Translations under genes and position numbers: made by a program
Notes under the pieces: generated by a model
What the model was told of the DNA's origin: nothing
Databases searched by the model: none
The model's input: the letters and a program-made list of their open reading frames with translations, nothing else
DNA from: an uncultured Chthoniobacter sp.
GTDB lineage: Bacteria; Verrucomicrobiota; Verrucomicrobiia; Chthoniobacterales; Terrimicrobiaceae
NCBI GenBank assembly: GCA_964585615.1
Contig: CAZPEN010000023.1
Span: forward strand, 1-64,000
Reading direction: 5' to 3'
Length of the DNA: 64,000 bases
In this document: positions 1 to 56,842 of the stretch, piece by piece
Position numbering within the stretch: the stretch's first letter is position 1
Layout: the number at the start of each line of letters is the position of its first letter

Positions 1-4
1 GGCC

Positions 5-68
5 GGTTCCGGGCGCTAGGTGTTACGCTTTATCCTTTTACCCTGCGAAGCAGGGACGGAAAAAATTT
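5..68. repeat. Copy 1 of a ~48-60 nt conserved intergenic element (core aggtgt..ccttttNCCCTGCgaaGCAGGGNcggaaaaaa) containing a 6-bp GC-rich inverted repeat
   Basis: Gapless alignment of 18-65 with 16577-16624 gives 42/48 identical nt. Internal palindrome CCCTGC-gaa-GCAGGG followed by an A-run. Lies about 110 nt upstream of the sigma-54 promoter at 178. Confidence 0.6.
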
Positions 69-177
69 TATGAATTTGGACAACTTGATGGCAGCTTTCG
101 CGCATCGGCATCAAGAAGGAAAGCTCCTCACATTCCGTTTGGCAGGGAGAACAAGGATTGCCATTTGCCGCACAAGT

Positions 178-193
178 TGGCACGATTTTTGCC
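178..193 (+). promoter_or_regulatory. Sigma-54 (RpoN) -24/-12 promoter: TGGCACGatttTTGC
   Basis: Exact match to the TGGCACG-N4-TTGC consensus. GC of the -12 element at 191-192, 15 nt before the ATG at 207. Same strand as the downstream gene block. Confidence 0.7.
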
Positions 194-206
194 TCATCTC
201 CATTCG

Positions 207-680
207 ATGAAAAAACTCACATACGCCCTCCTCGCCGCCGCAGTGCTTGCCGGTGCGGGAAACGGATTCACCCGCGAGCCGGAGAAGTTCACGACCGAAG
301 AGGTCGTGACGGAAAAGAAAACCGTGAAAGTGCAGGCCAGTCCGGCCTCGGCCTTTCCATCCAACCCAAACGCGCAATACGTGAAGCTGCGGGTGGGAGA
401 AATCCGCCCGGCCCTTGAATCGAAAGGGAGCCTGTTTGCCTCCGCTCCGGAAGCCTTTTATCTGCCCGCCGAGGCTATCGGAGTGGTGCAGGTGATCGTG
501 GAAAAGAAAGGCACGACCGCCACGTATTTCCTCAAGGGCCTGCGCAAGGGAAAAACGGTCGGGGGCGTGGTCCAGCGCGGATGGCTTGACAAGACCGGCT
601 TCAAACCGAGGACGATCACCGACGAAGGCCGCATCCAGCAAGCGCTCAAGGCAAAACCCTTTTACGTCACTGTCGAATGA
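207..680 (+). CDS. secreted hypothetical protein (signal peptide MKKLTYALLAAAVLAGAG)
   Basis: ORF 165..680; the N-terminal signal peptide starts at the ATG at 207. No recognisable catalytic motifs. Confidence 0.6.
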   Translation: MKKLTYALLAAAVLAGAGNGFTREPEKFTTEEVVTEKKTVKVQASPASAFPSNPNAQYVKLRVGEIRPALESKGSLFASAPEAFYLPAEAIGVVQVIVEKKGTTATYFLKGLRKGKTVGGVVQRGWLDKTGFKPRTITDEGRIQQALKAKPFYVTVE

Positions 681-949
681 AAAAAATATCCATCCCGCTC
701 GCCGCCTCGCTTTTGCTCGTGGGCTGCGCCACGCAGATCACGGAAGGCCCCACCGGCCCTTCACGTCCGGCTCCGGTAGTCACGTCCTCCCCCGCCCCAA
801 CGCCCCGGCCCCAACCGGCGGAATCACCACGACCGACGCCGTCCCCGGTGAGCCGACCCACCCCTTACCCGATCCCCCAGAGACCCGATACAGGCACCTC
901 GCCTCTGGCCCCTTCGCCGGACCAACCGATCTGGCAACGCACCCAGTAA
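677..949 (+). CDS. small proline-rich lipoprotein (LVGCAT lipobox)
   Basis: Signal peptide plus lipobox LLLVGC. Pro/Thr/Ser-rich low-complexity mature part. Start overlaps the previous stop by 4 nt. Confidence 0.5.
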   Translation: MKKISIPLAASLLLVGCATQITEGPTGPSRPAPVVTSSPAPTPRPQPAESPRPTPSPVSRPTPYPIPQRPDTGTSPLAPSPDQPIWQRTQ

Positions 950-958
950 AGGCACTCT

Positions 959-2620
959 ATGCCTGCCGTCTCCGAGCTCAATCTGGCGCTGGTGATTCTC
1001 CGCGATGGGGCCGAGGGGGAGACCATTCCACTCAAGGGCGGAAAATTTACGTTCGGGCGCGATGCGGCGCACGATCTCACCCTGCCCGATGCCTCGGTCT
1101 CCAGAAACCACGCGGAGCTGGCCATTTCGCCAGGTGGAGTGCAACTCCGCGACCTCGGGAGCCGCAACGGCATCCGAGTGAACCGGGTTCCCCGTAAGCA
1201 GGCCAACCTCCTGCCGGGAGACACCTTCGAGATTGGTGTATTTACCTTCCGCCTCAAGGCCGGAGCGGCTCAACGGCGTGCGCCCGCGCTGCAACGCCCT
1301 TCGCCAGAGGTCGCCATCGAACAAACCGTCTCTCGCGCCTTCCCACTCCCGCAGCTGTCCCATGAGCGGCAACTCTCCACCATTTACCACGCCTGTTTCT
1401 GGCTCACGGAGAGCACGGATCCTGAGCTTCTCACCGAACGCCTTGCCCGCCTGCTTTGCGATGCGACCGATGCGGTGGAGGCGCAGTTTTATTCCGCAGA
1501 TCTCACCCTGCGCCACCGCTGCGGAGAGGCCGGAAAACCTGTTGTGAAGATCGCTGCTTTCCTTGCTGAGAAATTCCAGTCCCTGCCCGAGGCGGCCATG
1601 GTATCCGGTAAGGAGATCGCCCGGCACCAAAGGGGCGTCGGCCAGTTCAACTATCTCGTGGGCCCGATTCGCCGGGGGGGGAATGGCGATGCGGCAGCCC
1701 CTTTTATCCTCCTCTTGCGCCCCGAAGATTGGGAACCTTTCACCCTCGATCAGCGCGTGCTGTTGCAAGCCGTCTGCCAACTTTGGGCCAGGGAGACGGT
1801 CAAAATCGAAGCCACTGAGACCCTCCGCCGCGAGAACCAAGCCCTCAAGTTGAAGGCGGCCTCCCCAACCTTGCTCGGCCAGAGCGACGTCCTCCAGCAC
1901 CTGCGCCAGCAACTCAACCGCGCCGCCGCCACCAAGGCCACCATTCTGCTCGATGGCGAGACCGGCTCCGGCAAGGAAGTTGTCGCCCAATTTATCCACG
2001 AATCCAGCCCCCGTGCCGCCAAGCCCTTCGTCAAGGTCAACTGCGCCGCCATTCCCGACGGCCTCATCGAGAGCGAACTCTTCGGCCACCAGAAGGGGGC
2101 CTTCACAGACGCAAAAGACAGCCGCAAAGGCAAATTCCTTCAAGCCAACGGAGGCACCCTTTTCCTCGACGAAATCGGCGAGATGCCTCTCTCCGTGCAG
2201 GCCAAGGTGCTCCGCGCCCTCGAAAACGGGGAGATCGAACCCCTCGGCAGCGAGGCCGTGCAGAAGGTGGATGTGCGCGTCATCGCCGCCACGCACCGCA
2301 ACCTTGCCGAGATGGTCGAGCGCAAGGAATTCCGCCAGGACCTCTACTTTCGTCTCAATGTCTTCAACCTCGGTGTCCCTCCGCTGCGAGAACACGCCGG
2401 GGATATCGCCGAACTGGCCCGCCATTTCCTCGAAGCCTTCTGCCGCGAAAACGGCCTCGCCGAACTCGCCATCGCCCCCGCGGCCCTGGCCCTTCTCGAA
2501 AAACACCAATGGCCCGGCAACGTGCGCGAACTGCGCAATGTCATCCAGCGTTGCGCGATCGTTGCCGCCGGGCCGACGGTTTTGGCGGAAGACGTGAAAA
2601 AGGCGATCGGTGTTTCCTAA
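959..2620 (+). CDS. FHA-domain / GAF-like / sigma-54-interaction (AAA+) transcriptional activator lacking a C-terminal HTH
   Basis: N-terminal FHA signature ([22 protein letters not shown]...NGIRVN). Central AAA+ sigma-54 activator motifs: GETGSGKE Walker A, GAFTDA (GAFTGA-like), DEIGEM Walker B, GNVREL. Protein ends about 30 aa after the AAA+ domain with no Fis-type HTH. Confidence 0.85.
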
Positions 2621-2638
2621 GCATCAAAAAATCCATCC

Positions 2639-4438
2639 ATGAAAAAACTCAAAATCCTCTGCATTCACGGCGTGGGCCAGCACGAGGCGGACATCGCCTG
2701 GGTGCAGGCTTGGGCGGATCATGCGATTCAGGGCACGAAGCCCTGGAACCCGACTCTGCAAACCGAGGCAGACCTTCTCTATTTTGAAAAGTTTTTCGCC
2801 GACGCGCCGATCAATGCGGCGACATATGCCAAAGCGATCTCAGCGATGACCTTCAGCGGGCTGACACACGGAATCGGGGATTTGTTCCGCCGCAACCGGG
2901 GGGTCACGGAGGTCTCCAACAAAGTTCGCTGGCTTGCAGGCATGGTGGTGCAATGGGCGGACAACCCTCAACTCCGGGACAAGGTGCGGAAGGCAATCCG
3001 GCAGAAAATCACGAACTATCAACCCGATGTGATTCTCGCCCATAGCCTTGGCTCGCTCGTCACCTACGATACATTCGTGCACGGCGGGGACGATCTCGTG
3101 CGGGACCGATATTACGTGACCTTCGGGTCCCAAATCGGAAATCCCTTCGTGAGAAATATTTTTGGAGGACGGATTGTCCCTCTACCCGCCAAACGCTGGT
3201 TCCATCTTTTCAATCCTCAGGATGACGTGCTGACCGCCCGATTGAATCTCTCGGACACAAATTTTCTTCAAGTCATCACGGATTTTGAGCTTGAAGGCGT
3301 TGGCGATCACGATGCCGATGGCTACCTCAGCCATGCATCTGCCGTTCAGGTTGTGTGGTCAGAGATCAGTGGGGCCGAAAAATCCCAGTTGGCGAGGAAT
3401 CTGAAGGGAAAGTTCACGGCATCCGTGCGCGGTGCGGGCAAGCCTCTCAACCGGGCGCTGATCATCGGAATCAACGACTATCCCGATCCCAAGATGCGGC
3501 TTGAGGGATGTGTCAACGACGCCTTCCGCATGAGTGAGACGCTCCAGGAGTGCGGCTTTCCCGCAGAGGGAATCCGCCTGCTGCTCAATGAGCGCGCCAC
3601 GACGGATGCCATCCGAGAGCGCCTGGCCTGGCTGCTTGACCGTCCCCAGCCGGGCGACCAGCGGTTCCTGGCCTTCAGCGGGCACGGAGCGCAGATCGAA
3701 TCCTACGGACTCGGTGAATCCGTGGACCGTCAGGACGAGTGTCTTGTGCCCTACGATTTCGACTGGAGCCTGGACCGTGCCATCCTCGACGACTTCATCC
3801 ACGACCTCTACGTGGACCTCCCCGAGGGGCTGGACTTTTACGCGTTCTTCGACTGCTGCCACTCCGGAGGACTGGCCCGTGAGGGAGGCCCGAGGGTTCG
3901 GGGCCTGCAGCCTCCCGACGATGTCCGCCACCGCAGCTTGGAATGGGATGGAAAGCTGCAACTCTGGAAAGCCCGCAACCTGCCTCCCGTTAATCCCGAT
4001 CTCGCCGCATCGACAAAAAGCACATCGGCGATCAGTGGCGACGGGTCGGCCCTTTCAAATGGACAGTCTTACCTGGGGCGATCCGGGAATCTGCACCGCC
4101 TCTTGCGCTCTTCCTCACTCCGCACACTGCCAAACGCAAAATACGACTCCGTGCGCAAGGATCTCCATCACCACGGCCCCTATCTGCCCGTCATCTTCCA
4201 AGCCTGTCAGGAAAGCGAACTCGCCTGCGAATACCACCACGGAGCAGTGCCCTACGGGGCTTTCACCTTTGTCACAACCAATATCCTCCGCCAACACGCC
4301 GCACAGAAAAAGACGATCACCTTTGCCTCGTTGATCAAACGAACCAACTCCGCGCTCAAGGCGCTCGGTTACACACAGACACCGGTGCTCGTGGGACCAA
4401 GCGTAAAAATGCGAAAACCAATGCCTTGGAAGAAATAG
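2639..4438 (+). CDS. alpha/beta-hydrolase (lipase/esterase-like, AHSLGS nucleophile elbow) fused to a C-terminal caspase-like peptidase C14 domain
   Basis: N-terminus ILCIHGVGQ, AHSLGS, and later D and H residues typical of alpha/beta-hydrolases. C-terminal half has the caspase His (FSGHGAQ) and Cys (FFDCCHSGG) dyad after an ALIIGINDYPD..L.GCVNDA start. Confidence 0.8.
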   Translation: MKKLKILCIHGVGQHEADIAWVQAWADHAIQGTKPWNPTLQTEADLLYFEKFFADAPINAATYAKAISAMTFSGLTHGIGDLFRRNRGVTEVSNKVRWLAGMVVQWADNPQLRDKVRKAIRQKITNYQPDVILAHSLGSLVTYDTFVHGGDDLVRDRYYVTFGSQIGNPFVRNIFGGRIVPLPAKRWFHLFNPQDDVLTARLNLSDTNFLQVITDFELEGVGDHDADGYLSHASAVQVVWSEISGAEKSQLARNLKGKFTASVRGAGKPLNRALIIGINDYPDPKMRLEGCVNDAFRMSETLQECGFPAEGIRLLLNERATTDAIRERLAWLLDRPQPGDQRFLAFSGHGAQIESYGLGESVDRQDECLVPYDFDWSLDRAILDDFIHDLYVDLPEGLDFYAFFDCCHSGGLAREGGPRVRGLQPPDDVRHRSLEWDGKLQLWKARNLPPVNPDLAASTKSTSAISGDGSALSNGQSYLGRSGNLHRLLRSSSLRTLPNAKYDSVRKDLHHHGPYLPVIFQACQESELACEYHHGAVPYGAFTFVTTNILRQHAAQKKTITFASLIKRTNSALKALGYTQTPVLVGPSVKMRKPMPWKK

Positions 4439-4444
4439 AAGGGT

Positions 4445-5758
4445 ATGATCACTACAACTGAAGAATTGCTTGCCCGCGCCCGCTCTGCCCTGGGAAAGAA
4501 GATCCCTTATGAGAACAGCAAAGGTGGCTTCAAACCCGAAATCGATACTCCCAATCAGCGCGGCGGTTGCGACTGTAGCGGTTTCGTCGCCTGGGCGCTC
4601 GGCATTAGCCGCCTCACGAAGGATCCGTTCTACCTCCGCAAGAATGGTGGCTGGATTGAGACAACAGCCGTTTATGAGGATATTGGCTCGCCGGTGGGGC
4701 TGTTCTCTGCCCTGGACCAGCCACAACCCGGATGCGTCGTGGTCTATCCAGATCACGTCGCCGGTGGCACACCACACGAAGGTCACATCGGAATCGTGAC
4801 GAAGGTAAGAAAAACCGCAGCCGGTGCGGAAGCAACCTCCGTGATTCACTGCTCCTCATCGGGTTGGAAGAAGCAGGGAGACTCTATCCAGGAGAACGCG
4901 CCAGCCGCTCTGCTCAAGAATCCAGATGTGAGATACGGGTGGTTTTCCGGTATGGAATCTGTCATGTCGCCCGCTTCCAGATCCACGATTACCACAGCAA
5001 CCAGAGGGTTGCTCAGAGATGTCCCGCATGCCGCGGGAGTCCGGTTTTCCGTGAAGGAAGGGGACGGGATATTTACCCACGCCTGGGAGTTCCCCGGCGA
5101 GACACCATTCTTTTTTCAGAGCCGCCTTCATGTGTGCGCTGACGGTGCGCCAGACGCCTATGCGCCGGGAAACCTGGGAACAGACGACCTGCGTAACGCC
5201 GGAAAGCCTCCTCGCAAAGACGCTCCGATGGATCGCGACTTTCACCTCTGGAAATGGTTTGGCATAGTTGTTGGTGACGGAAATCACCCCATTGTACAAA
5301 AAGCCTCCGACCCCAACCCCGGCTTCTTCGTTTCCCAAACCGCCCATGGCAACTGGGGACGCTACCCGGAGACCGATCCGCGCTGCTACGTGAACGCCAA
5401 CGAGATCGCCTATCTGGTGCTTCCGAGTGGGCATACCGGCGGAGCTCGCAAGGGAGATTTTGGATCTATTATTCATCGCCCCACCGGCAAGGCGATCCCC
5501 GCCATCTGGTCCGAAGTGGGGCCGGACGACGAGACCGGGGAAGCATCGATTCTGGCTGTGAAGCAACTGGGATTTGTCGCCAACCCTCGCAAGGGAGGCA
5601 GTTCAAAACGCGAATTCCTCTATCTCGTCTTCCCGGGCTCAGGCAATGGTCGGCCTCGCGAGCAGAAAGAGATCGAAAAGATCGGCGGCCGACTTTTCGC
5701 CGATTGGGGCGGAATCCAGCGGGTATCGCGCCTGCCGGATCTGACGGGACGGGTATGA
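4445..5758 (+). CDS. NlpC/P60-like (papain-fold) cell-wall peptidase domain protein with a C-terminal domain of unknown function
   Basis: GGCDCSGFVAWALG motif (NlpC/P60 catalytic Cys context) and downstream HIGIV His. About 290 C-terminal residues unassigned. Confidence 0.6.
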   Translation: MITTTEELLARARSALGKKIPYENSKGGFKPEIDTPNQRGGCDCSGFVAWALGISRLTKDPFYLRKNGGWIETTAVYEDIGSPVGLFSALDQPQPGCVVVYPDHVAGGTPHEGHIGIVTKVRKTAAGAEATSVIHCSSSGWKKQGDSIQENAPAALLKNPDVRYGWFSGMESVMSPASRSTITTATRGLLRDVPHAAGVRFSVKEGDGIFTHAWEFPGETPFFFQSRLHVCADGAPDAYAPGNLGTDDLRNAGKPPRKDAPMDRDFHLWKWFGIVVGDGNHPIVQKASDPNPGFFVSQTAHGNWGRYPETDPRCYVNANEIAYLVLPSGHTGGARKGDFGSIIHRPTGKAIPAIWSEVGPDDETGEASILAVKQLGFVANPRKGGSSKREFLYLVFPGSGNGRPREQKEIEKIGGRLFADWGGIQRVSRLPDLTGRV

Positions 5759-7596
5759 ACTTCAGGACGGAGGGGCATCTGAACAGGGAGGACTCGCAAG
5801 GCTGGTATTTTAGTGAGTTCGACAGAATTGGCCTTGGCCGATTCCTCCTCCGGCAGAACGCAGGGCGCAAGCTGGCTTTGTGGGCTTTGCTGTTCTGGTC
5901 GATCGTCCTGCTTCTTGGCCACTACGGGAAAGCCAACTATATTCCCCGCGTTTTCGAATTGTCTTTCCCGGTTGGAGAGCAATGGGAAAAATTCACTCTT
6001 GTTCTAAAAAGCGGCTACCTTGCCGAGGCCAACCACGGTCTTTTTTACCTGCTGGTTGCTCCCCTGTTTCTCTTCCTCGCCCACTCCTTTCTATGGCAAG
6101 TGGGTGCCATTACCAGGACCTTGATTGAACACCGCAGGCTTGTGCCCCTGCCACCCAGCGCGAGTTTTACGGAGCGCCTCGCACGATGGAACACCTGGTT
6201 TTTGCCAATTTGGATTCTGGCCTTTTGTGTTTGGGTTCCGGCCCAGCTGTTTCAGGAATATTCCAGCCTCAACAAGGTGAGGTCTTCCGGTTACGACCGG
6301 AAGTCGGAAAGCCTCTCAAAGAACTTTGGCTATGTGCAGGCTTGGCAGACGGGAAAATGGTGCGACACGTTTGGAGAAACTCCCCTGCACGAGCGGGCGG
6401 AATGGCTGGCATCAAGCCGATTGTGGAAAGAAGAGTCTCCCTCGTTATCCCAGAAATTCGAAAATCGCGTCGCTTATAACAAACTCGGCATCCCCTCAGA
6501 ATACTTTATCTCGCTTGAGGCCAGAACGCAGGGATTGGCCTTTAACACCCTCCGGCCAGAAAAGGCCGGAAGAATCTATGACTCGGGACACTTTGCGATT
6601 CGACTTCCCGATTGGTTGCACGCACGAGGAGTTGCTCTGGACAAGCCACCGAAATGGAACTTTACGGTGCTGCCCCAACATCGATGGGATGCCCAAACGG
6701 TACGGGAAAAATATTGCTTTGAAGCCTTCCTGTTTCTCAATCTTGCCTCGGAAGCCTGTTTCCAGGTTGTCGCAACGCTTATCGTGATCAAGAGCATCGC
6801 CTGGATCGTTCTTTTGCAATATTGGCTGCCTTCCGCGACAACTTCCAAACCAAACGGAACGATCTTTCGCTTCATGAGGGAGGTTTTCCCCAAGGTATTT
6901 GCCATTGCCGCGCTCGGACTTACGGTCGTTTTTGCTTGTATCAAGCCGATGACCTTGTTCGCCACGGTTCCGGCCTGGCTGCTGGCTGCCTTGCTTTTCA
7001 ATCTCGCACGTCAGGGACGCAAGGAGGCGATTGCGCACGCCAAGATCAGGCCGGACTGCCAGGATCCGACCCGCAAATACGGAATGGGGGAAATTCACGC
7101 CATATACAATGCCATGGTTGCCCTGGCCGCACTTGGAGCGCTGGGTCTATGCCTACTACTTCTGAATTCCTTCACCCCCGGAGTCTTGGACACGGGTGGC
7201 GGCCACACACAGGTTATCGAATTTCTGAGCATTCTTTTGGTTGTAGCAGTGGTTTTGGCCGTAGTTTTCGGGCCGATGACGTTATTCAGTTGGCACCTCG
7301 CGACGTATCGGGAAAAATGCATCGGCAGAGTGGCCGCCAAAGGCACGACGGAATGGCTGCGCTTGACGGATTTGATGAGAAGCCAATGGGCTTGGCCGTG
7401 GAAGAATGCCTGGTTTGTGACATTGTCGGGGGCGGTCATCGCATTTTGCGCCGTGGGAGCCGGCATGAGCCTGGGTTTTCTGCCGGGTGAGTTACAGAGC
7501 TCTGCCGACAGCTTCATGGATTTGCCACGAAACTTTCGCGAGTTGGCTTGCTATCTTGCTTCCGCCACCAATCCAGAATTGTCTTTCCGAGATTGA
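5755..7596 (+). CDS. polytopic integral membrane protein (about 12 predicted TM helices), unknown function
   Basis: Many long hydrophobic segments. ATG at 5755 overlaps the upstream TGA (ATGA coupling). Confidence 0.6.
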   Translation: MNFRTEGHLNREDSQGWYFSEFDRIGLGRFLLRQNAGRKLALWALLFWSIVLLLGHYGKANYIPRVFELSFPVGEQWEKFTLVLKSGYLAEANHGLFYLLVAPLFLFLAHSFLWQVGAITRTLIEHRRLVPLPPSASFTERLARWNTWFLPIWILAFCVWVPAQLFQEYSSLNKVRSSGYDRKSESLSKNFGYVQAWQTGKWCDTFGETPLHERAEWLASSRLWKEESPSLSQKFENRVAYNKLGIPSEYFISLEARTQGLAFNTLRPEKAGRIYDSGHFAIRLPDWLHARGVALDKPPKWNFTVLPQHRWDAQTVREKYCFEAFLFLNLASEACFQVVATLIVIKSIAWIVLLQYWLPSATTSKPNGTIFRFMREVFPKVFAIAALGLTVVFACIKPMTLFATVPAWLLAALLFNLARQGRKEAIAHAKIRPDCQDPTRKYGMGEIHAIYNAMVALAALGALGLCLLLLNSFTPGVLDTGGGHTQVIEFLSILLVVAVVLAVVFGPMTLFSWHLATYREKCIGRVAAKGTTEWLRLTDLMRSQWAWPWKNAWFVTLSGAVIAFCAVGAGMSLGFLPGELQSSADSFMDLPRNFRELACYLASATNPELSFRD

Positions 7597-7664
7597 AAAT
7601 ATAGCTCGTTGAAATACCTCGTCTCACAATGAGCACATTCTCCTATTGCGACATGACCAGAACT

Positions 7665-7680
7665 TGGCACAGAAATTGCC
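7665..7680 (+). promoter_or_regulatory. Sigma-54 -24/-12 promoter: TGGCACagaaaTTGC
   Basis: Matches the TGGCAC-N5-TTGC consensus. In the 95-nt gap before the kinase gene. GC of -12 at 7678-7679, 13 nt before the GTG at 7692. Confidence 0.65.
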
Positions 7681-7691
7681 GGCCAGCGTAA

Positions 7692-9599: not shown

Positions 9600-9646
9600 T
9601 ACCGCGATTTCTAACAGCTACCAACTTACTATCTTTTAAACACAAT

Positions 9647-10252: not shown

Positions 10253-10352
10253 TCTCATCTCATATATGCAGCCGTTTCTTGGTAAACTGTAGTGTTAGTG
10301 CCATGATACAACACCACCATGAGATGTTACGTGGAGCAGAGAAACAAAAGCG

Positions 10353-11168
10353 ATGATCCCTACACTCCGCAAAAACGATAAAGGCGATGCTGTCTCGCGC
10401 TGGCAGACCTTTCTCATCGGCCAAGGCTTCCACGCAAAAGGCGCCGACGGCGTTTTCGGCAAGGACACGCTCATCGCCACGGCGGCTTTCCAAAAGAAAT
10501 ACAAACTCAAGCCCGACGGTGTCGTAGGCAACAGCACCTACGCGGTGGCCGCACAACTCGGCTTTCCGATCACCACCGATGACTCGACCGCCCAGAATTC
10601 CATCTCGTGGCCAGTGCCGCCGAAGGATTTCGGTCCGACCAACGCAGAAACCCGGGACGCTGAGTTCGGATGGTTTGATTTCGAGCACGCTCCAGCCCCC
10701 AAAAACTATGAACGCATCCGCATCCTCTCGACGTGGGAGAAGGATAATCTGATCGTGGTGGATGTCCCGCAACTAGCGAAGGCCCTTGGATTAGCCACCC
10801 AAAGAGCCACCATCCACAAGAATATCCAAGATCCCTTTCTCTCTGTGTGGGCAGCTTGGGAAAAAGCAGGGCTGCTAGACCGCATATTGACTTGGGAGGG
10901 TGCTTTCTCCCCACGCTTCATCCGGGGCGGAGCCACACCCAAGAACGTCCAGGCCAAGAATCGCAGCAAGCTCAGCAACCACGCATGGGGCACGGCTTTC
11001 GACATCAACTACGAGTGGAACCAACTCGGCTCCATTCCGGCCCTTGTCGGACAGAAGGGCAGCGTCCGCGAGTTGGTCCCGCTCGCCCTCAAGCACGGCT
11101 TCTTTTGGGGTGGTCACTTCCGCAACCGGCTCGACGGCATGCACTTCGAATGGGGGCGGTGGACATGA
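10353..11168 (+). CDS. peptidoglycan-binding domain (PG_binding_1) + M15 (VanY/L-Ala-D-Glu peptidase-like) zinc peptidase
   Basis: N-terminal GDAVSRWQTFLIGQGF..DGVFGKDT..AFQKKYKLKPDGVVGNSTY matches PG_binding_1. C-terminal SNHAWGTAFDIN and GGHF..DGMHFE motifs match M15 zinc-binding H-x6-D ... H. Confidence 0.75.
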   Translation: MIPTLRKNDKGDAVSRWQTFLIGQGFHAKGADGVFGKDTLIATAAFQKKYKLKPDGVVGNSTYAVAAQLGFPITTDDSTAQNSISWPVPPKDFGPTNAETRDAEFGWFDFEHAPAPKNYERIRILSTWEKDNLIVVDVPQLAKALGLATQRATIHKNIQDPFLSVWAAWEKAGLLDRILTWEGAFSPRFIRGGATPKNVQAKNRSKLSNHAWGTAFDINYEWNQLGSIPALVGQKGSVRELVPLALKHGFFWGGHFRNRLDGMHFEWGRWT

Positions 11169-11367
11169 TGCCCCGCCGGGGAGCGATGTATACCGCAGCC
11201 CCGAGCAAAGTGGGCGAACAAAGCTGGCACGGAAATCGGTTTTCGACTACAAAACTTCGCTTATGAATTTCTTCGCGAACGACCACCTCCAACGCAGCGG
11301 CTTGGCCTGATCAAACTCACTCTTTCAAATAATGTTTTGATTTCCCTCTTTTAACGATCCCACCTTC

Positions 11368-11838
11368 ATGAAAATAACAGATTTGACCGCGAAGATGAAA
11401 AAAGTCTCAGTACTTTCCGCAATCCTCTTCAGCCTTGCCTTTGCGGGGTGTGCTTCCATTTCCGATTACGACCAGACCGCATACAAGAATGCGGTTGATC
11501 TCAAGGTGGATACCCTGACTGTGATGAGTCGGGCCAATCAGCCCTATTCCTCCCAGAAAGACTCTTTGGACGCCTTGGGGGTGCAGATGGATAAGGCTTA
11601 CGAATACGACGCCGGACGACCAGTCAACCAGAAGACCCTCCAGATGTGGGATATCCTTTTGAAATCCGATGCCGCCATTCCCGAAAATGGAATCTGGCCG
11701 AAATTCGTGGAGAGGTGGCGGGCGGACGGGCGTCTCTCCGGAGCCTATCTGCAAGACAAGAAGGAAAACGTCGCCGATGCCTTCGACAAGATCATTGCCC
11801 TCGAAAGCGGCAAGTTGAAACCATCGGACATTCCCTGA
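11368..11838 (+). CDS. lipoprotein, unknown function
   Basis: Signal peptide with lipobox (LAFAGCAS). Confidence 0.5.
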   Translation: MKITDLTAKMKKVSVLSAILFSLAFAGCASISDYDQTAYKNAVDLKVDTLTVMSRANQPYSSQKDSLDALGVQMDKAYEYDAGRPVNQKTLQMWDILLKSDAAIPENGIWPKFVERWRADGRLSGAYLQDKKENVADAFDKIIALESGKLKPSDIP

Positions 11839-11844
11839 CAGCAT

Positions 11845-12171
11845 ATGGCAAAAAACAGCATTGATTGGGGCCAGGTCGGCAGCGACGTGGCGAAACTCGC
11901 ACAGAGCATCTTTTCGAGCCGCGCCAAGGCGCTGGCCAAGGATGGGATGATCTTCTTGAAGGAGGTCCAGGAGCGCGCAATTAAGTATCATCTTCAGCTC
12001 GCAACCGAGCAAATCACGAAGTCCGAATTCAACGAACTGATGCTTGACCTGAAGGCACTGGCGAAAATGGAAAAGCTCAAACAGGAGGGGCTCACCCTAG
12101 TCGCCCGTGACAAGTTTATTAACGGTGCCATCGACATCCTGATGAAAGCGGCGATTTCTGCCATTCCCTGA
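11845..12171 (+). CDS. hypothetical protein (helical)
   Basis: ORF tightly packed within the unidirectional cluster. Confidence 0.35.
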   Translation: MAKNSIDWGQVGSDVAKLAQSIFSSRAKALAKDGMIFLKEVQERAIKYHLQLATEQITKSEFNELMLDLKALAKMEKLKQEGLTLVARDKFINGAIDILMKAAISAIP

Positions 12172-12181
12172 GGAGGAGGCC

Positions 12182-12799
12182 ATGCCACTCTCTCTCCTGA
12201 ATAACACCTCGATCCGTCTCGATGAGGTGATTGCCGCCATGCGGGCGAAAAAATATCACGTATTTGACCGGGAGGACTACCAATTGAACATCGTCGGCAT
12301 CCGTCGGAGACCGTTCAAGGTGGATGTCTTCAACGATACTCTCTTCTGTTTTCACCCGTTGAACGGGCAGTGGACTTACGCGAAATACCAGATCACCACG
12401 ATTCCCGGACTCACGTATCTCAAGGAGAAATTTTATCATGAGAAGGGAACGGCCATTCTTATGCCCGGGCAATACAAGGATGCCTATGAAATCGGCAATC
12501 ATTGGGGGTATCAGGCGGTCTGCCAGAAGGACTCGGTGCGTCTGCCGGTCTATCGCGACGACAAGTTCGACGGTATCCCCGAGCTGGACGACAGAAAGCG
12601 CTTCACGGCTGGCGGGATCAATATCCACAGGGCTTCCCGACAAGGATGCACCATTCGGATCGGAGAGTACTCCGCCGGGTGCCAGGTTTTCCGGTGCGCC
12701 GAGCATTTCGATGGGTTTATGGCAACCGCCCGACGCGCCCGCGCAATGCATGGAAACTCCTTCACCTACACCTTGATCGACGAGTCGGACGTGCGGTGA
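12182..12799 (+). CDS. hypothetical protein
   Basis: ORF in the cluster. No motif I can assign with confidence. Confidence 0.4.
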   Translation: MPLSLLNNTSIRLDEVIAAMRAKKYHVFDREDYQLNIVGIRRRPFKVDVFNDTLFCFHPLNGQWTYAKYQITTIPGLTYLKEKFYHEKGTAILMPGQYKDAYEIGNHWGYQAVCQKDSVRLPVYRDDKFDGIPELDDRKRFTAGGINIHRASRQGCTIRIGEYSAGCQVFRCAEHFDGFMATARRARAMHGNSFTYTLIDESDVR

Positions 12800-12982
12800 G
12801 TTCCGCATGCTTCCGCTCAATAGCACTTGGGTGGAAAAACCATCGTGTCTCGACCGGCTATTCCGGGTTGATGGTCGAGAAGTCGGAGGTCCCGGAAGGT
12901 CCTCGGATTTTCTCTGTCATCGGTTTCCCGGATTGTCTCTTCACTGTCTCCACGGTTGAATTTTGGAGATTTGGGAGAAACT

Positions 12983-12998
12983 TGGCACGGAATCTGCC
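12983..12998 (+). promoter_or_regulatory. Sigma-54 -24/-12 promoter (near-consensus): TGGCACGgaatCTGC
   Basis: TGGCACG-N4-CTGC (GC of -12 conserved). 54 nt upstream of the ATG at 13051. Same TGGCACGGAAT as the promoter at 18894. Confidence 0.55.
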
Positions 12999-13050
12999 GA
13001 ATCGACATTTGTGAAAATATTGATTACCAACAAAAAATCATTCTAACGCC

Positions 13051-14592
13051 ATGGGATTCTTTACCGAACGCTGCCCGAACTGCGGGAAACCAATTTCCAA
13101 AAACGCCCAGCATTGCAACCACTGTGGCTGTCCGTCCTCCACCGCCTGGGCGAGTTGCCATTCCTGTGGCACCGCCGTGGGCGCGGACTCGAAATTCTGC
13201 TGGAAGTGCGGTTCCGAACAAAACCCGGACGCCAGGGTGAAGTTCTACGGCGACCGCTGGAGACGATCCGGTTCGGACTTCGCTGTGCGTGTGGAGTTGA
13301 ATACTCCTGAGGCCGTTCTCCACCACGGCCTTCAGGTGGACGACGGCACGCTTGCCCTGATTTTCCAGGACGGTCGGCTGCTGAGCACGCTGGAGCCGGG
13401 CTACCACACCTTCGACAACGTCCTCCAGCGGGTGCTGGGGCTGGACAAGGGCAAGTACGCCCACGCCGTGCTGCTTGACATGCGCTCGGCCGAGGTGGAC
13501 TTCTCGTTCTCCGGTTTGCAGGTGTCCGGCGGGCTGCTGGTGGATTTCCAGGCGCGGCTGTATTTTCAAATCACTGACCCGCAGGCATTTGTGGCTACGA
13601 TGGTGAGCGAGGCCGCATCAACTTTCACCACAGACGATCTCTCCCAGCGCTTCGGGGCGGAAGTTCGCGACGCCCTGCAGGGAGCCATCACCAGCCTCGA
13701 TCTCAACGACCTCCTTGTGCTGGGTGGCGTGCGGTCCCAAGTGGAGGAGGCAATGTCTGGCCCACTCCAACAGCGACTTGCGCCCTTCGGGATGCAGGTG
13801 GCGGGGTTGCGGTTGGTGGATTTCCATGGAACGGCCGTCGAAGGGGCCCGGGCCAAGCTCGGTGAACTGGCCCAACTCAACCGCGAATTCGAACTCAACC
13901 GCCGCCTCGAGGAGGCCCTCCGCCGCGAGAAAGTCGAGGCCTTCCGCAGCGAGGAGGAGGCGGGCGATTACTATTCGAAGATCACTGACGAATACGGACT
14001 CAAAGATGCAGAGCGCGAGGAGAAGAAAAAGCGTTGGGTACAGGCCGCCGAGAACCAGACGCAGGTCGAGGGGATCCGCCTCGATTACCAACTCCGCCGC
14101 CAGGAAATCCTCCACCGCCTCGACGAGCAGGCACTCCTTCACGAGCACGACTTTACCGATCTCAAGGCGAAGCTCGACCAGGACCGCCTCCGGCTCAACG
14201 AGGCGCTGGCCCACGATAAAGCACGCTTCGACCAGGAGCAGGCCCAACGACTCCATAAAGCCTCCACAAATAAAACCATCGCCGAGCAGGGTATCGACAC
14301 TCTCGTGAAGCTCAAGGAGGCGAAACTAGGGGTACGCAAGCAGGAAGACGAGCATGAGTTGAACCTCGAAAGCCAGCGCCTGCGCCTGAGAGGCGACGCA
14401 CCGCTCCAAGCCCTCATCGCCACACTGCCCGCCGAGCAGGCGGACCGATTGCTCAAACTGGCCGAGATGGAAATGCGCAAAGGGCTGAGCGCCGAGCAAT
14501 CCCTCGCGCTTGTCGCAGAAAAATCTCCCGAGATTTCTCCTGCTGTCGCCGACGCCCTGCGGGCGCGCTATGCAAACAAGGAGAAAGAATAA
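13051..14592 (+). CDS. zinc-ribbon (4 CxxC pairs) + SPFH/band-7-like domain + long coiled-coil protein
   Basis: N-terminus CPNCG..CNHCG..CHSCG..CWKCG. Middle region is beta-rich then helical, as in SPFH. C-terminal 200 aa charged coiled coil. SPFH assignment is tentative. Confidence 0.55.
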   Translation: MGFFTERCPNCGKPISKNAQHCNHCGCPSSTAWASCHSCGTAVGADSKFCWKCGSEQNPDARVKFYGDRWRRSGSDFAVRVELNTPEAVLHHGLQVDDGTLALIFQDGRLLSTLEPGYHTFDNVLQRVLGLDKGKYAHAVLLDMRSAEVDFSFSGLQVSGGLLVDFQARLYFQITDPQAFVATMVSEAASTFTTDDLSQRFGAEVRDALQGAITSLDLNDLLVLGGVRSQVEEAMSGPLQQRLAPFGMQVAGLRLVDFHGTAVEGARAKLGELAQLNREFELNRRLEEALRREKVEAFRSEEEAGDYYSKITDEYGLKDAEREEKKKRWVQAAENQTQVEGIRLDYQLRRQEILHRLDEQALLHEHDFTDLKAKLDQDRLRLNEALAHDKARFDQEQAQRLHKASTNKTIAEQGIDTLVKLKEAKLGVRKQEDEHELNLESQRLRLRGDAPLQALIATLPAEQADRLLKLAEMEMRKGLSAEQSLALVAEKSPEISPAVADALRARYANKEKE

Positions 14593-14863
14593 ATAAAATG
14601 GACTCCAGTTCCAATGACAATTCGGTTTCCCGTTGGATGGAACATCTCAGTTCCGCACTGCTTTTGCTCATGGGTGGCTGCCTGGGAGGGGGCGCGATTT
14701 TCGAGATTGTCTTTAAACGCGGAGAACCTTCCGTTTTGCGACAGGAAACATTGCTGGGAATTTTGGTGGCGGCAGCCCTCCTTCTTCCGGGGGTGGCACC
14801 AGAGTTTCGCGCAAACTAGCCAAACAAAAAATGAGAAATCAAAAATGGGGAAGCTGCAGAGAA

Positions 14864-15640
14864 ATGAAATACATTGTTTTAGCACTGCTGGGCATAGCAG
14901 GATTCTCTCGCGCGCAGGAGACAAATTCGCTTGGGATGAAACTTGTGCCGGTGCCTGGAACAAAGATCCTGATGGCGACGACGGAGGTGACGGTGGACCA
15001 ATACAAGGCGGCAGGGCTCGGGTATGAGTCGCCGAAGTTTCCGCAGGGAGGCAATCACCCTGCGGTGAACGTGAGCTGGAACGACGCGAAGAAGTATTGC
15101 GCGTGGCTGAGTAAGAAGGAGGGGAAGAAGTATCGGCTGCCGACAGATCATGAATGGAGTTGCGCTGTCGGAATCGGACATTTGGAGAATCCAGCAGACA
15201 ATCCGGCAAGCAAGAGTGAAAAGATCGTTGATGTGTATCCATGGGGAAAAGGGAAGCCGAGCGGGAAGGCAGGCAACTACATGGGGCAGGAGTGGAATTC
15301 GCCAATGGGAATCGAGACCGCTCAAAAATACGGATTCAAGCGGGGCGAGTGGAGTTTAGTTCCTGGCTATCACGACGGAGTTCTTTTCACATCGGCGGTC
15401 GGCAACTACTCACCGAATACATTTGGGATCTACGATTTGGGGGGAAACGTTTGGGAGTTGTGCGAGGACAAGTTCGGCGGGAACGGATATGATAAGAGCA
15501 TGCGTGTGCAACGGGGCGGGTCATGGGGATACTTCACCAAGGATTTTGTATTATCGTCCTCCCGTATCCGCAATGAACCAGGATCTCGCAGCGACAACAT
15601 CGGCTTTCGGGTTGTGTGTATTCCAATAGATAAACCGTGA
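14864..15640 (+). CDS. FGE-sulfatase (SUMF1/formylglycine-generating enzyme family) domain protein, secreted, paralog 1
   Basis: NHPAVNVSWNDAKKYCAWLS, RLPTDHEW, DLGGNVWE, RGGSW motifs typical of the FGE-sulfatase domain. Signal peptide. Confidence 0.8.
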   Translation: MKYIVLALLGIAGFSRAQETNSLGMKLVPVPGTKILMATTEVTVDQYKAAGLGYESPKFPQGGNHPAVNVSWNDAKKYCAWLSKKEGKKYRLPTDHEWSCAVGIGHLENPADNPASKSEKIVDVYPWGKGKPSGKAGNYMGQEWNSPMGIETAQKYGFKRGEWSLVPGYHDGVLFTSAVGNYSPNTFGIYDLGGNVWELCEDKFGGNGYDKSMRVQRGGSWGYFTKDFVLSSSRIRNEPGSRSDNIGFRVVCIPIDKP

Positions 15641-15756
15641 ATGATATGAATGAATCAAAAACGTTGGCAAAGCCAGGAATTGGAAGACAGCCTTCCGGAT
15701 TTAGTATCGAAGTGGAGAGCGAAGCGAAGCAAATGGCTTGCCGATCCGTCCGAGTA

Positions 15757-16566
15757 ATGAAAGCGAAACGCATCGGCAGGATGCGGATGCCACGATGGGT
15801 TGTCTTGGCGATGGCGCTTGTGGTGTCGGCGTCTATCGCTCGCGCGCAGGGTTTCACGAACAGCGTTGGAATGAAGATGGTTCCTGTGCCGGGCACAAAG
15901 ATCCTGATGGGGACGACGGAGGTGACAGTGGATCAATACCGGGCGGCAGGTCTGGGGTATGAGGCACCGGAGTTCGCGCAGAGCGGGAACCATCCGGCGG
16001 TGAATGTGAGCTGGAACGATGCGAAGAAATACTGCGCATGGCTGAGCAAGAAGGAGGGGAAGAAGTATCGTTTGCCGAGTGACCGGGAGTGGAGTTGCGC
16101 GGTGGGGATCGGGAATCTGGAGAGCGTGGGAGGGAGCCCGGAGAGCAAGTGCGAGAAGTTGCCGGATGTGTTTCCGTGGGGAAGCGGGAAGCCGAGTGGG
16201 AGGGCAGGGAATTACATGGGGCAGGAGTGGAAAAGTAGCTCGGCAGGAATAGCATATGCGAAATCGAAGGGTTGGAAAGAGGGGCAACTGTGCCTGGTTC
16301 CCGACTACAATGATGGACACATGTTCACGGCTCCCGTGGGAAGCTATTCACCGAACAGTCTTGGGATCTACGATCTGGGGGGAAACGTGTGGGAATGGTG
16401 CGAGGACAAATACGGAGGAAGCGGAGCAGCAAAAGCCTATCGTGTGATGCGCGGCGGGGCGTGGGGCGGTGGCGACATCTGCGGTTTGCTGTCGTCGTGT
16501 CGCGATCACGTCAATCCCGAGTATCGCGGCGGTAGCTACGGTTTTCGGGTGGTCTGTGAGGCGTGA
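15757..16566 (+). CDS. FGE-sulfatase domain protein, secreted, paralog 2 (tandem duplicate)
   Basis: About 70% identical to the upstream paralog over the domain. Same motifs. Confidence 0.8.
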   Translation: MKAKRIGRMRMPRWVVLAMALVVSASIARAQGFTNSVGMKMVPVPGTKILMGTTEVTVDQYRAAGLGYEAPEFAQSGNHPAVNVSWNDAKKYCAWLSKKEGKKYRLPSDREWSCAVGIGNLESVGGSPESKCEKLPDVFPWGSGKPSGRAGNYMGQEWKSSSAGIAYAKSKGWKEGQLCLVPDYNDGHMFTAPVGSYSPNSLGIYDLGGNVWEWCEDKYGGSGAAKAYRVMRGGAWGGGDICGLLSSCRDHVNPEYRGGSYGFRVVCEA

Positions 16567-16630
16567 TCCGGCGGCGAGGTGTAGCCCTTTACCCTTTTTC
16601 CCTGCGAAGCAGGGTCGGAAAAAACTTCAA
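16567..16630. repeat. Copy 2 of the conserved intergenic element with CCCTGC-gaa-GCAGGG inverted repeat
   Basis: See copy 1. Located immediately after the FGE paralog 2 stop and before the C39-like peptidase gene. Confidence 0.6.
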
Positions 16631-16646
16631 CCAGTAGATCAAAACC

Positions 16647-17366
16647 ATGAAATGCCATTTTGGTGGTTCAAAGCGGTCGAATCGAGAAAGCCAAGCCTCT
16701 CAACAGGAACTTAACGGTGTCCGGCGGATTTCGCTACTGCCTCTTTGCGTTTTTTTGATCCTGACTTTTCTCGCGAGCCATGTCGGAGCGCAATCCTACG
16801 GCTTGGCACCAATTTATGTGGGTATTGAGAAGAACGCGATATCCGGTATTTCGGCTTCGCAGAAGACACCGATGTGGTGTTGGGCTGCTTGTATTGAGAT
16901 GGTGTTGCGGTATTACAACATTGAAATCACTCAGGAAGATGTCGTCTATCGCACCTACGGTATTGACGCGGCTGGAAATCTGCCAGTATTTGGAGCGAAA
17001 GCCCCGGAGATCACACGGAATCTAAATAACTGGAGTTTCGATCGGAATGGCAAACCTTACGTGGTTCGGGCGGCGTTGTTTCCGGGAACTCCGCGTAACG
17101 AGATTGTCATTGATCATCTCAAATCGGGAAGGCCCATTATCCTGGGATATGGACCTGATCCTGATTCCGGCCATGTCGTGGTGCTGACGGCACTGAGTTA
17201 TGTCGTGGACCAATATGGGAGGCCATATGTGACTACCTTGATTGTGCGAGATCCGTTTCCCGATAATTGGGGATTGATGGATCGAGGGCGAAAGGAATAC
17301 GTGAACGGCATGCTCCCGGCACCGATTCAATGGATGTGGATCGTGGATGCAAAACGGGCCTATTGA
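16647..17366 (+). CDS. secreted papain-like cysteine peptidase (C39-like domain)
   Basis: Signal peptide. PMWCWAACIEMVL (Cys in a C39/papain-like context) and downstream SGHVVVLTAL His. Confidence 0.55.
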   Translation: MKCHFGGSKRSNRESQASQQELNGVRRISLLPLCVFLILTFLASHVGAQSYGLAPIYVGIEKNAISGISASQKTPMWCWAACIEMVLRYYNIEITQEDVVYRTYGIDAAGNLPVFGAKAPEITRNLNNWSFDRNGKPYVVRAALFPGTPRNEIVIDHLKSGRPIILGYGPDPDSGHVVVLTALSYVVDQYGRPYVTTLIVRDPFPDNWGLMDRGRKEYVNGMLPAPIQWMWIVDAKRAY

Positions 17367-17502
17367 ACTGCCACGCCTGATGAAGTACAAATAAATGTCT
17401 GCCCAGCACCGCGATAAATCCCTGTCCGCTCTTCTTTTAAAATATGACTGTAGCCAGATCCAAATATAGAAAGAGAAAGCTACAAATGGCTGTTCAGATT
17501 GG

Positions 17503-18771
17503 ATGTGTTGGGTTTCTGGTTGTATGAAAACAAGACCATGCCTTAGGATTGTGCGTCTAGCCTGCAAGCATTTCAATAAGTTGAGTCAGCGCGAGGTTTT
17601 CGCATTTGTTGTCATTTCTCTGGGAGGCTTGGCTGGTGGTTTTTTGAGTGATTTACGACATCCAGATCCTCTGGCAAGCCGGGAGAGCATGGATTATTTT
17701 TACCTGATTTTCGGTGTGGCTGCAGCTTGGGTTGGCGTCTACGTCGTTCTGGGGAGTGAGGTCGTCAAGCTTGTTCGCCGCTTTGCCCTGTCGGTGGTTT
17801 GTGGCTTCGCTGGCGTAGCGGTAATTGAAAGCACGCAAAGCTTTGTTGGAGTGAAGGAGAAGGTGGATTTTCAGAGTGCTTTGAATCAAGAGAAATTGAT
17901 ACAAGAAAGGATTCGACAGATTATCCGACAGCAGGAATTGCAAGTTGATGGGGCGAGAATTGAGAATAGCGCTGAAGCAAAGATCCAGGAGACGCGAAAT
18001 CGTTTAGCTCAGCTTCTTTCGATGGCAGCTGCCTATCCTTCGATGGAAACGGATGGCATGATACTTCCGACACTTTTTGTCGGCCTCGATACTCTTGAAG
18101 ACGGAGTCAAGCAAGCTCCGCGTGAGTCAGTGCAGGCACTTCGTGATCTTTCGGGATTGGAAGGTCTCTGCTTGTCGGATTACATGAAGGGTCTCCTAAA
18201 GCGACACTTGAGGAACGCGGAAACATCTCTGCAGGCAGTTGCCGCCTCTACTCCGATTCCCAATTTGGCAGGTTCTGAAGTCGCTTCCTCTCCTGCGACA
18301 GCGAAGCCCACTGCGCAAATAGGAAACATGCCCGGCAGAGGTGCATCACCCTCTCCTTCTCCAATCGGCCTTTCTACGGCTAGTCCAACGCCTGAGCAAG
18401 AATCTGCCGTGGGGTTTATCAGGGTTGCGAACTATGGCCCTCTTCAAAGTCAAAATCCAAAGTGGGATGATATTTTGATTCGCTCCGCGCAAGGAAATAA
18501 GAATCGAGGCTTCCCTAAACCAACCGGAGCGGAGCCCGAGAATGAAATGCTGGATCTGAACGCGAAATACGTTGTGGAGGCCGATATTTTTCTTCGTAGC
18601 GACTTTCCCTCAGTGAACGAGAAGGGGCTGTTATTCGCCCCCAGTATCGCCGTAATTAAAAGGGGATCTCTGGTTACAGTGACACGTGCGGCGATCAGAT
18701 CGAACAAATCGCTGTCTCAACTTTGGGCGGAAGTTTCCGTTAACCGAAACGATCTTCTTTCTGTTGAGTGA
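17503..18771 (+). CDS. membrane-anchored coiled-coil protein, unknown function
   Basis: N-terminal TM segments then long helical region. Lower GC at its 5' end. Confidence 0.45.
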   Translation: MCWVSGCMKTRPCLRIVRLACKHFNKLSQREVFAFVVISLGGLAGGFLSDLRHPDPLASRESMDYFYLIFGVAAAWVGVYVVLGSEVVKLVRRFALSVVCGFAGVAVIESTQSFVGVKEKVDFQSALNQEKLIQERIRQIIRQQELQVDGARIENSAEAKIQETRNRLAQLLSMAAAYPSMETDGMILPTLFVGLDTLEDGVKQAPRESVQALRDLSGLEGLCLSDYMKGLLKRHLRNAETSLQAVAASTPIPNLAGSEVASSPATAKPTAQIGNMPGRGASPSPSPIGLSTASPTPEQESAVGFIRVANYGPLQSQNPKWDDILIRSAQGNKNRGFPKPTGAEPENEMLDLNAKYVVEADIFLRSDFPSVNEKGLLFAPSIAVIKRGSLVTVTRAAIRSNKSLSQLWAEVSVNRNDLLSVE

Positions 18772-18893
18772 ACCAATCAACGACTGACTTTGCCATCCAT
18801 CGCCCCATGCCAAACAACGACATTGATTTTGCTCAGCCGTTTCATCGGGCAGGCACCAACCAGTGGTGTTGCGCCACACGGTTGCATGAATCT

Positions 18894-18909
18894 TGGCACG
18901 GAATTTGCC
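18894..18909 (+). promoter_or_regulatory. Sigma-54 -24/-12 promoter: TGGCACGgaatTTGC (perfect consensus)
   Basis: Exact TGGCACG-N4-TTGC. 58 nt upstream of the ATG at 18966. Precedes the tandem FHA-TM-caspase genes. Confidence 0.75.

Positions 18910-56765: not shown

Positions 56766-56842
<77 letters not shown>

Follow-up and report, generated by a model that had tools for sequence, protein, structure and literature searches.

We analyzed a 64,000-nucleotide (nt) stretch of DNA from an uncultured Chthoniobacter sp. (contig CAZPEN010000023.1; the whole stretch is referred to as the window), in which four matches to the -24/-12 promoter of sigma-54 (RpoN) had been predicted. The four sites, termed P1 to P4, are likely to be the sigma-54 promoters of the four operons of one regulon, with a locally encoded bacterial enhancer-binding protein (bEBP) that carries an FHA domain as the likely activator. 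The activator would be gated by Ser/Thr phosphorylation and the regulon would control envelope proteins. We infer the sigma-54 dependence, the identity of the activator, the coupling between kinase and FHA domain, the positions of the transcription start sites (TSS), and the envelope signal as input. For the TSS predictions we took the usual distance of about 12 nt from the C of the -12 element to the start. The sites are:

177 to 193, plus strand: P1, putative sigma-54 promoter TTGGCACGATTTTTGCC; GG at 179-180 and GC at 191-192; predicted TSS at about 204, with the ATG start at 207 and a leader of about 3 nt
7664 to 7680, plus strand: P2, putative sigma-54 promoter TTGGCACAGAAATTGCC; predicted TSS at about 7691, adjoining the GTG start at 7692
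12982 to 12998, plus strand: P3, putative sigma-54 promoter TTGGCACGGAATCTGCC; top score in the window with the position weight matrix (PWM) of the family; predicted TSS at about 13009, leader of about 42 nt
18893 to 18909, plus strand: P4, putative sigma-54 promoter TTGGCACGGAATTTGCC; predicted TSS at about 18920, leader of about 46 nt

The pattern TGGCAC-N5-TTGC was found three times in the window, each time on the plus strand (178-192, 7665-7679, and 18894-18908), and 12983-12997 (plus strand) holds TGGCACGGAATCTGC, a match with one mismatch, T to C in TTGC (TCTGC). The pattern search and the map of open reading frames (ORFs) bore out the original prediction of three exact sites and one near-exact site co-oriented with genes. 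The accompanying estimate of about 0.1 exact matches by chance was close to the 0.14 per window that we computed; one of 100 shuffled sequences gave three matches. The TTGGCAC...TGCC frame said to be common to the sites was confirmed as well. Its extended form, TTGGCAC-N5-YTGCC, occurs at 177-193, 7664-7680, 12982-12998, and 18893-18909, always on the plus strand, which amounts to four matches in the window versus 0.03 expected, and none of 100 shuffles reached four. The GG and GC doublets with canonical sigma-54 spacing are present at all four sites.

The rest of the window, beyond the block formed by the four operons, holds no further sites. Within the block all four sites fall in the approximately 7% that is intergenic and lie on the gene strand, with 14, 12, 53, and 57 bases from the -12 C to the start codon for P1 to P4, respectively (range 12-57 nt upstream). 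The mRNAs from P1 and P2 are therefore predicted from this geometry to be near-leaderless, with leaders of about 3 and 1 nt. A claim that the sites occupy the only sizeable gaps of the block proved wrong: gaps of about 100-240 nt at 10253-10352, 11169-11367, 14593-14830, and 17367-17502 are without a full site. In one of these, 199 nt long and followed by the lipoprotein gene at 11368, a half site CTGGCACGGAAATCGG was observed at 11224-11239 (plus strand); its -24 element is perfect and its -12 element degenerate (PWM 6.5 bits). It may be a decayed or very weak promoter.

Related loci were found from homologues of the activator and of lipo157, the secreted protein of 157 amino acids (aa) encoded by the first gene of operon 1, and 14 of them were distinct. 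The named ones are Terrimicrobiaceae and Verrucomicrobia metagenome-assembled genomes (MAGs), the closest being Terrimicrobiaceae MAGs; a profile search of genome contigs with the small secreted protein gave four true loci. A PWM trained on 23 sites from other loci only, none from the window, ranked the four window sites 1 to 4 on both strands (128 kb), with scores of 29.1, 25.5, 25.1, and 22.2 bits, and the near-exact site at 12983 was the strongest. The fifth-best score in the window was 12.9 bits, and the mean maximum of Markov-random sequences was 13.3. Throughout about 300 kb of sequence (window and related loci, both strands) 42 PWM matches of at least 16 bits were found, 41 of which were followed within 4-89 nt by the start codon of an ORF of at least 50 aa; the sole exception precedes a gene call of 44 aa. 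All 11 matches of at least 18 bits in L018-L020, loci outside the training set, were intergenic and co-oriented with the genes. In the 14 distinct loci each strong site has a co-oriented ORF starting 4-128 nt after it.

The placement of the motif is conserved in the relatives. It is located 14-50 nt before the starts of lipo157 homologues, 42-53 nt before the gene for a zinc-ribbon-SPFH protein (sites in L003, L004, L006, and L021), and 14-26 nt before the starts of the Ser/Thr kinase genes of L003, L009, L013, and L019. FHA protein genes are also preceded by the motif, and in two loci the activator gene itself probably lies behind a site with a TGGAAT variant of the -24 element. Short promoter-to-start spacing recurs at many of the homologous sites. 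In footprint alignments of distant loci the -24/-12 element was the only conserved intergenic block besides the start codon, both for the zinc-ribbon-SPFH gene (four loci) and for lipo157 (eight loci). The neighborhood conserved between loci consists of the small secreted protein, a lipoprotein, the zinc-ribbon-SPFH protein, the activator, FHA proteins, and kinases whose external domains vary, and the FHA-bEBP gene adjoins such promoters in 13 of the 14 distinct loci.

L021 is a close relative, with an activator in the same 90%-identity cluster as that of the window. Sites orthologous in position to P1, P3, and P4 are present there, spaced 14, 53, and 65 nt from the start codon, which is identical to the window for P1 and P3, and the site orthologous to P4 precedes an FHA-caspase gene. 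The stretch conserved between L021 and the window is longer than in distant loci and includes the element at the same positions. Between the -12 C of P3 and the start codon (12998-13050) 52 of 53 nt are identical in L021, while the DNA upstream of about -45 has diverged. L021 lacks about 10 kb of the window (2639-12799), comprising the caspase, CHAP-like, and eight-transmembrane (8-TM) genes and the whole P2 kinase operon, and its P3/zinc-ribbon-SPFH operon directly follows the activator gene (L021 11675-11966). Extra sites are found in L021 13 nt before two FGE-sulfatase genes. Since L021 is without the P2 stretch and has extra FGE-sulfatase sites of its own, the locus appears from this comparison to be modular and to grow by cassettes that each carry a -24/-12 element. 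A conserved block, AGAACAAGGATTGCCATTYGCC, was observed at window positions 150-171, just upstream of the -24 element of P1. This block and the stretch between P3 and its start codon may hold further regulatory elements.

The general features of sigma-54 -24/-12 promoters have been described (PMC3162934). P1 to P4 are like canonical sigma-54 promoters in the GG and GC doublets with their spacing, in the TGGCAC and TTGC elements, in their location just upstream of genes, and in having a bEBP gene nearby. The canonical consensus, credited to Barrios et al. in 1999, is reportedly YTGGCACGrNNNTTGCW. The family to which the window belongs is unlike it in that the base at -11 is always C and in that C or T follows GGCA, about equally often, in the relatives; no enhancer motif is present, and two of the predicted leaders are only about 1-3 nt long.

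The activator gene is the third gene of operon 1:

959 to 2620, plus strand: sigma-54 activator (bEBP) with FHA, GAF-like, and AAA+ domains (Pfam, structure model)

A locus-encoded sigma-54 AAA+ activator with an FHA domain had been predicted, and Pfam identified it as such (Sigma54_activat PF00158, E=3e-71, plus an FHA match). The FHA domain covers residues 9-101, a GAF-like alpha/beta domain about 134-290, and the AAA+ domain 300-550. Walker A (GETGSGKE), Walker B (DE), and sensor II (GNVREL) are present, and Walker A, Walker B, and the sensor residues are invariant in the family. The canonical residues of the phosphothreonine pocket of the FHA domain, GR (33-34), SRNH (48-51), and SRNG (68-71), were found as well; R34, S48, H51, and N70 are invariant in 46 family members. 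In the AlphaFold (AF2) model (predicted local distance difference test, pLDDT, of 88) the FHA domain is followed by a disordered linker, the GAF-like alpha/beta domain, the AAA+ domain, and the end of the chain. The modelled AAA+ domain overlays the FlrC, NtrC1, LuxO, and FleQ structures at 1.3-2 A with 43-52% identity.

The window activator ends 27 residues after GNVREL, at the AAA+ lid, and among 122 homologous proteins retrieved all 117 with GNVREL end 25-39 residues past it. In alignments with NCBIfam models of bEBPs (NtrC, NifA, NorR, and others) the match stops before the DNA-binding domain of the model, and the activator scores below every curated NCBIfam cut-off. When its N-terminal half was searched against 1.8 billion cluster representatives, only about 15-20 covered both the FHA and middle domains, which makes the family a small one; those of full length have 541-574 aa, and none of them is long enough for a DNA-binding domain. 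We found no helix-turn-helix (HTH) in the AF2 model of the activator, no split DNA-binding domain in the small ORFs after the activator gene of relatives, and no enhancer motif common to the regions upstream of the four promoters, which shared no k-mer of at least 8; nor was the IHF consensus found in these regions. The activator therefore belongs to the bEBP subclass without a DNA-binding domain, since the chain ends at the AAA+ lid, the model contains no HTH, no split HTH ORF follows the gene, and no enhancer motif is shared.

Other activators that lack a DNA-binding domain include CtcC of Chlamydia, FlgR of Helicobacter pylori, and FleT of Rhodobacter sphaeroides (PMC3162934; PMC3372290). 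Like these, the window activator has no HTH and would presumably work from solution, independently of an enhancer. Chlamydiae and Verrucomicrobia are by convention placed together in the PVC (Planctomycetes, Verrucomicrobia, Chlamydiae) superphylum. CtcC and FlgR are response regulators of two-component systems, and histidine kinases control their receiver domains, whereas the input of the window activator consists of the FHA and GAF-like domains and the co-encoded sensors are Ser/Thr kinases. FHA-domain enhancer-binding proteins of Myxococcus xanthus were reportedly described by Jelsbak, Givskov and Kaiser in 2005, in PNAS 102:3010 (cited in PMC12288465). The likeness to these lies in an N-terminal FHA domain fused to a sigma-54 AAA+ domain and in an organism rich in Ser/Thr kinases. 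The Myxococcus proteins are said to keep a C-terminal DNA-binding domain and to work at enhancers. The proteins of the window family differ from them, as they stop at the AAA+ lid, contain a GAF-like domain in the middle, and carry a GAFTDA or GAFSGA loop; the FHA, AAA+, and DNA-binding architecture of Myxococcus was not found, the DNA-binding domain being absent. By analogy, the FHA-AAA+ fusion together with the many Ser/Thr kinases would imply that phosphothreonine signaling feeds sigma-54 transcription.

Gene content was established from Pfam, from gene calls on an identical metagenome contig, and from a hydrophobicity scan. A tightly packed co-directional operon lies behind each of P1 to P4. 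Besides the activator gene the operons contain:

207 to 680, plus strand: operon 1, first gene, lipo157, secreted 157-aa protein; signal peptide and Ig-like beta-sandwich, no Pfam or NCBIfam family
677 to 949, plus strand: gene for a 90-aa lipoprotein, MKKISIPLAASLLLVGC..., lipobox LVGC; missed by gene calls, its ATG overlapping the stop of 207-680 as ATGA
2639 to 4438, plus strand: operon 1, caspase-like protein; His/Cys dyad present
4445 to 5758, plus strand: operon 1, protein with a weak, sub-threshold CHAP-like match (Pfam)
5755 to 7596, plus strand: operon 1, 8-TM membrane protein (hydrophobicity scan)
7692 to 9599, plus strand: operon 2, transmembrane Hanks-type Ser/Thr kinase; all catalytic motifs, one TM segment, external PG_binding_1
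9647 to 10252, plus strand: operon 2, lipoprotein
10353 to 11168, plus strand: operon 2, PG_binding and M15 peptidase
11368 to 11838, 11845 to 12171, and 12182 to 12799, plus strand: operon 2, three genes without assigned function, the first called a lipoprotein gene
13051 to 14592, plus strand: operon 3, double zinc-ribbon and SPFH protein
14831 to 15640 and 15637 to 16566, plus strand: operon 3, two FGE-sulfatase-domain proteins
16647 to 17366, plus strand: operon 3, C39-like peptidase
17503 to 18771, plus strand: operon 3, 3-TM membrane protein without assigned function
18966 to 20921 and 20924 to 22600, plus strand: operon 4, two FHA - TM - caspase proteins; both His/Cys dyads present

Searches for terminators as operon borders gave counts at chance level. 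In most related loci a homologue of the 90-aa lipoprotein is encoded between lipo157 and the gene for the activator or the SPFH protein. The Ig-like beta-sandwich of lipo157 was seen in a structure model, and its PDB matches were weak (E 5e-3 or worse), namely filamin repeats, the GspB siglec domain, and a chagasin-like cysteine-protease inhibitor. Assigning a function to lipo157 from these matches was rejected, since they are too weak. The match to the chagasin-like inhibitor (3m86, E=0.012) is far from significant; judged from the model, its occurrence beside the caspase-like, C39-like, and weak CHAP-like cysteine peptidases of the regulon is suggestive. About 80 positions at the beginning of the profile are missing from the first FGE-sulfatase gene (14831-15640), and a 137-aa ORF without family match (14614-15027) overlaps the start of this gene; the arrangement at 14614-15640 could be a frameshift or a mis-set start. 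NCBIfam gave no names for the proteins without function, and the PADLOC models of anti-phage defense gave generic kinase, caspase, and AAA+ domain matches only.

The gene content suggests how such a regulon might work. The transmembrane kinase with its external PG-binding domain would sense envelope signals from outside, and the FHA domain of the activator would read phosphothreonine made by this co-encoded kinase. Reading of the phosphothreonine would permit assembly or ATPase activity of the AAA+ ring. Without a DNA-binding domain the activator would work from solution without an enhancer, the ring remodeling promoter-bound sigma-54 holoenzyme. The four operons, including the activator and kinase genes, would be switched on, and positive feedback would follow from these two genes being located behind the promoters. 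The output would be envelope proteins, i.e., lipoproteins, an M15/PG-binding peptidase, the protein with the weak CHAP-like match, the SPFH scaffold, FGE-sulfatase-domain proteins, and membrane-anchored caspase-like proteases. PP2C or Metallophos phosphatases are present in two related loci.

In Mycobacterium the peptidoglycan-sensing Ser/Thr kinase PknB, with PASTA as its external module, has the FHA partners FhaA and GarA. The resemblance lies in a transmembrane Hanks-type kinase with an external peptidoglycan-binding module and in cytoplasmic FHA proteins that read its phosphothreonines. The window kinase differs in having PG_binding_1 and not PASTA, the proposed output differs in being direct sigma-54 transcription through an FHA-AAA+ fusion, and the FHA partners in the window include membrane-anchored caspase-like proteases.

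Several observations weigh against P1 to P4 being sigma-54 promoters driven by the local activator. The activator carries the loop GAFTDA, and the family has GAFTDA or GAFSGA rather than GAFTGA (84 GAFTDA and 33 GAFSGA among the 122 homologues retrieved). Both variants were listed in D. vulgaris among those judged to keep activating ability (PMC4641369). The -11 base is C (TTGCC) at all 42 family sites (window and L003-L020), where the canonical consensus has A or T. No co-oriented sigma-70-like sites were found in the four promoter gaps; no basal promoter was thus identified, and positive feedback needs one. The GTG start on the predicted leaderless mRNA from P2 is a kind of start that would be inefficient in some bacteria. 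The gene rpoN was not seen within the window, and a tblastn search of the related loci with an approximate E. coli RpoN query gave no match, a result that is uninformative. A family of intact sigma-54 activators implies rpoN, and RpoN was present in all Verrucomicrobia genomes surveyed in 2011 (PMC3372290).

The remaining objections concern which activator is used. Should the genome encode other bEBPs, it is not obvious how an activator that does not bind DNA would pick out these promoters. P1 to P4 might be real sigma-54 promoters that respond to one or several different bEBPs, which bind DNA and are encoded in another part of the genome, with the local FHA-bEBP being only a regulated gene or serving other promoters. 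With no HTH in the local activator nothing ties it physically to the sites, and L018 has sites before lipo157 and another gene with no bEBP within 10 kb. We consider this unlikely. The FHA-bEBP gene adjoins such promoters in nearly all of the distinct loci, and this adjacency suggests that they are driven by the local activator and not by a DNA-binding one from another part of the genome. No enhancer-like motif is shared upstream, only 68 nt separate P2 from the preceding stop codon, and enhancer-independent activators have precedent (PMC3162934, PMC3372290).

With GGCA-N7-TGCC read as a dyad, the sites could also be operators for a dimeric transcription factor, as repressor or activator sites overlapping ordinary promoters. 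The core is dyad-symmetric, and near-perfect palindromes occur in relatives, for example TTGGCAAAAGCCGTGCCAG in L009 and TTGGCACATTTTTTGCCAT in L006. The flanks do not follow this symmetry: T precedes GGCA in 22 of 23 sites, whereas the mirror position is A, G, or T in 7, 7, and 9 sites, and position 11, before TGCC, should be a purine in the dyad but is T in 19 of 23 sites. The higher-scoring strand faces the downstream gene at every site, the distances to start codons fall into two clusters, 12-26 and 42-65 nt, and the motif equals the sigma-54 consensus and adjoins a sigma-54 activator gene. Asymmetric conservation together with the gene-facing strand fits a directional promoter element, and an operator is very improbable. 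That the four sites are chance matches in GC-rich DNA, as the single shuffle with three exact matches might suggest, is effectively refuted by the PWM ranking, the placement over about 300 kb, the extended-frame statistics, the intergenic location on the gene strand, and the positions kept in relatives.

Altogether, the original reading of the sites as sigma-54 promoters is supported by the PWM ranking, the sites of relatives, the footprints, the asymmetry of the motif, and the FHA activator encoded in the locus.

On the right the block is bounded by tRNA-Ser(GGA) (23318-23403, minus strand) and tRNA-Arg(ACG) (23699-23775, minus strand). Before these, a short ORF (22723-23172, plus strand) encodes part of a histidine-kinase ATPase domain and is probably what remains of a gene. 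The gene ending to the left of P1 (window 1-19; L001 3-239) closes with an FGE-sulfatase domain, and the signaling module therefore probably extends past the left edge of the window. The remaining window is ordinary chromosome, with LpxC-FabZ, ABC-F, an alpha-2-macroglobulin, and a MoxR/DUF58 operon. The latter (MoxR AAA+ / DUF58 / DUF4350 / DUF4129 / RDD / SpoIIM-like) and the gene for an 1830-aa bacterial alpha-2-macroglobulin were found at 27952-34813 (minus strand) and 50759-56251 (plus strand); in L008 an alpha-2-macroglobulin gene adjoins the module. At 56767-61221 a tRNA-Met is followed by a MobA/MobL relaxase (57050-58333, minus strand) and an AbiEii/AbiEi toxin-antitoxin pair (59677-61221, minus strand), and this region is probably a small integrated mobile element.

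Sigma-54 promoters beside a bEBP gene, FHA-type activators, and activators without a DNA-binding domain are all known already. Our literature search gave no description of a sigma-54 regulon of this kind in Verrucomicrobia, and searches for FHA with sigma-54 in Verrucomicrobia and for leaderless sigma-54 transcripts gave nothing specific. We did not find descriptions of an FHA domain and an absent DNA-binding domain combined in one protein, of the family-specific promoter form, of the apparent near-leaderless arrangement, or of a Verrucomicrobia regulon with kinases, FHA, SPFH, and caspase-like proteins and cell-wall enzymes.

The external domains of the family kinases vary (PG_binding, PEGA, FGE-sulfatase, Sel1, beta-helix). 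A tentative and rather doubtful extension is a Verrucomicrobia-specific switch for envelope surveillance, in which transmembrane kinases with varied sensors would phosphorylate targets read by an FHA-gated activator without a DNA-binding domain, which in turn would give near-leaderless transcripts for itself, the kinases, membrane-anchored caspase-like proteases, and cell-wall hydrolases. If this were true, the result would be a self-reinforcing circuit of commitment that could lead to autolysis, programmed death, or differentiation, possibly as an abortive-infection-like response, and new cassettes would join the regulon merely by bringing a -24/-12 element of their own.

Since the mechanism of a bEBP acting with sigma-54 is standard, the value of the finding lies mainly in annotation and in the generation of hypotheses. 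With the conserved module and the promoter matrix YTGGCAY-N6-TGCC, regulons could be annotated in many uncultured genomes. The locus joins three subjects that are usually studied apart, namely sigma-54 transcription, Hanks-type kinase/FHA signaling, and bacterial caspase-like proteases with cell-wall enzymes, and provides a concrete, testable sigma-54 regulon for Verrucomicrobia. Its products are overwhelmingly envelope proteins, which fits the proposal that sigma-54 governs the bacterial exterior (PMC3162934).

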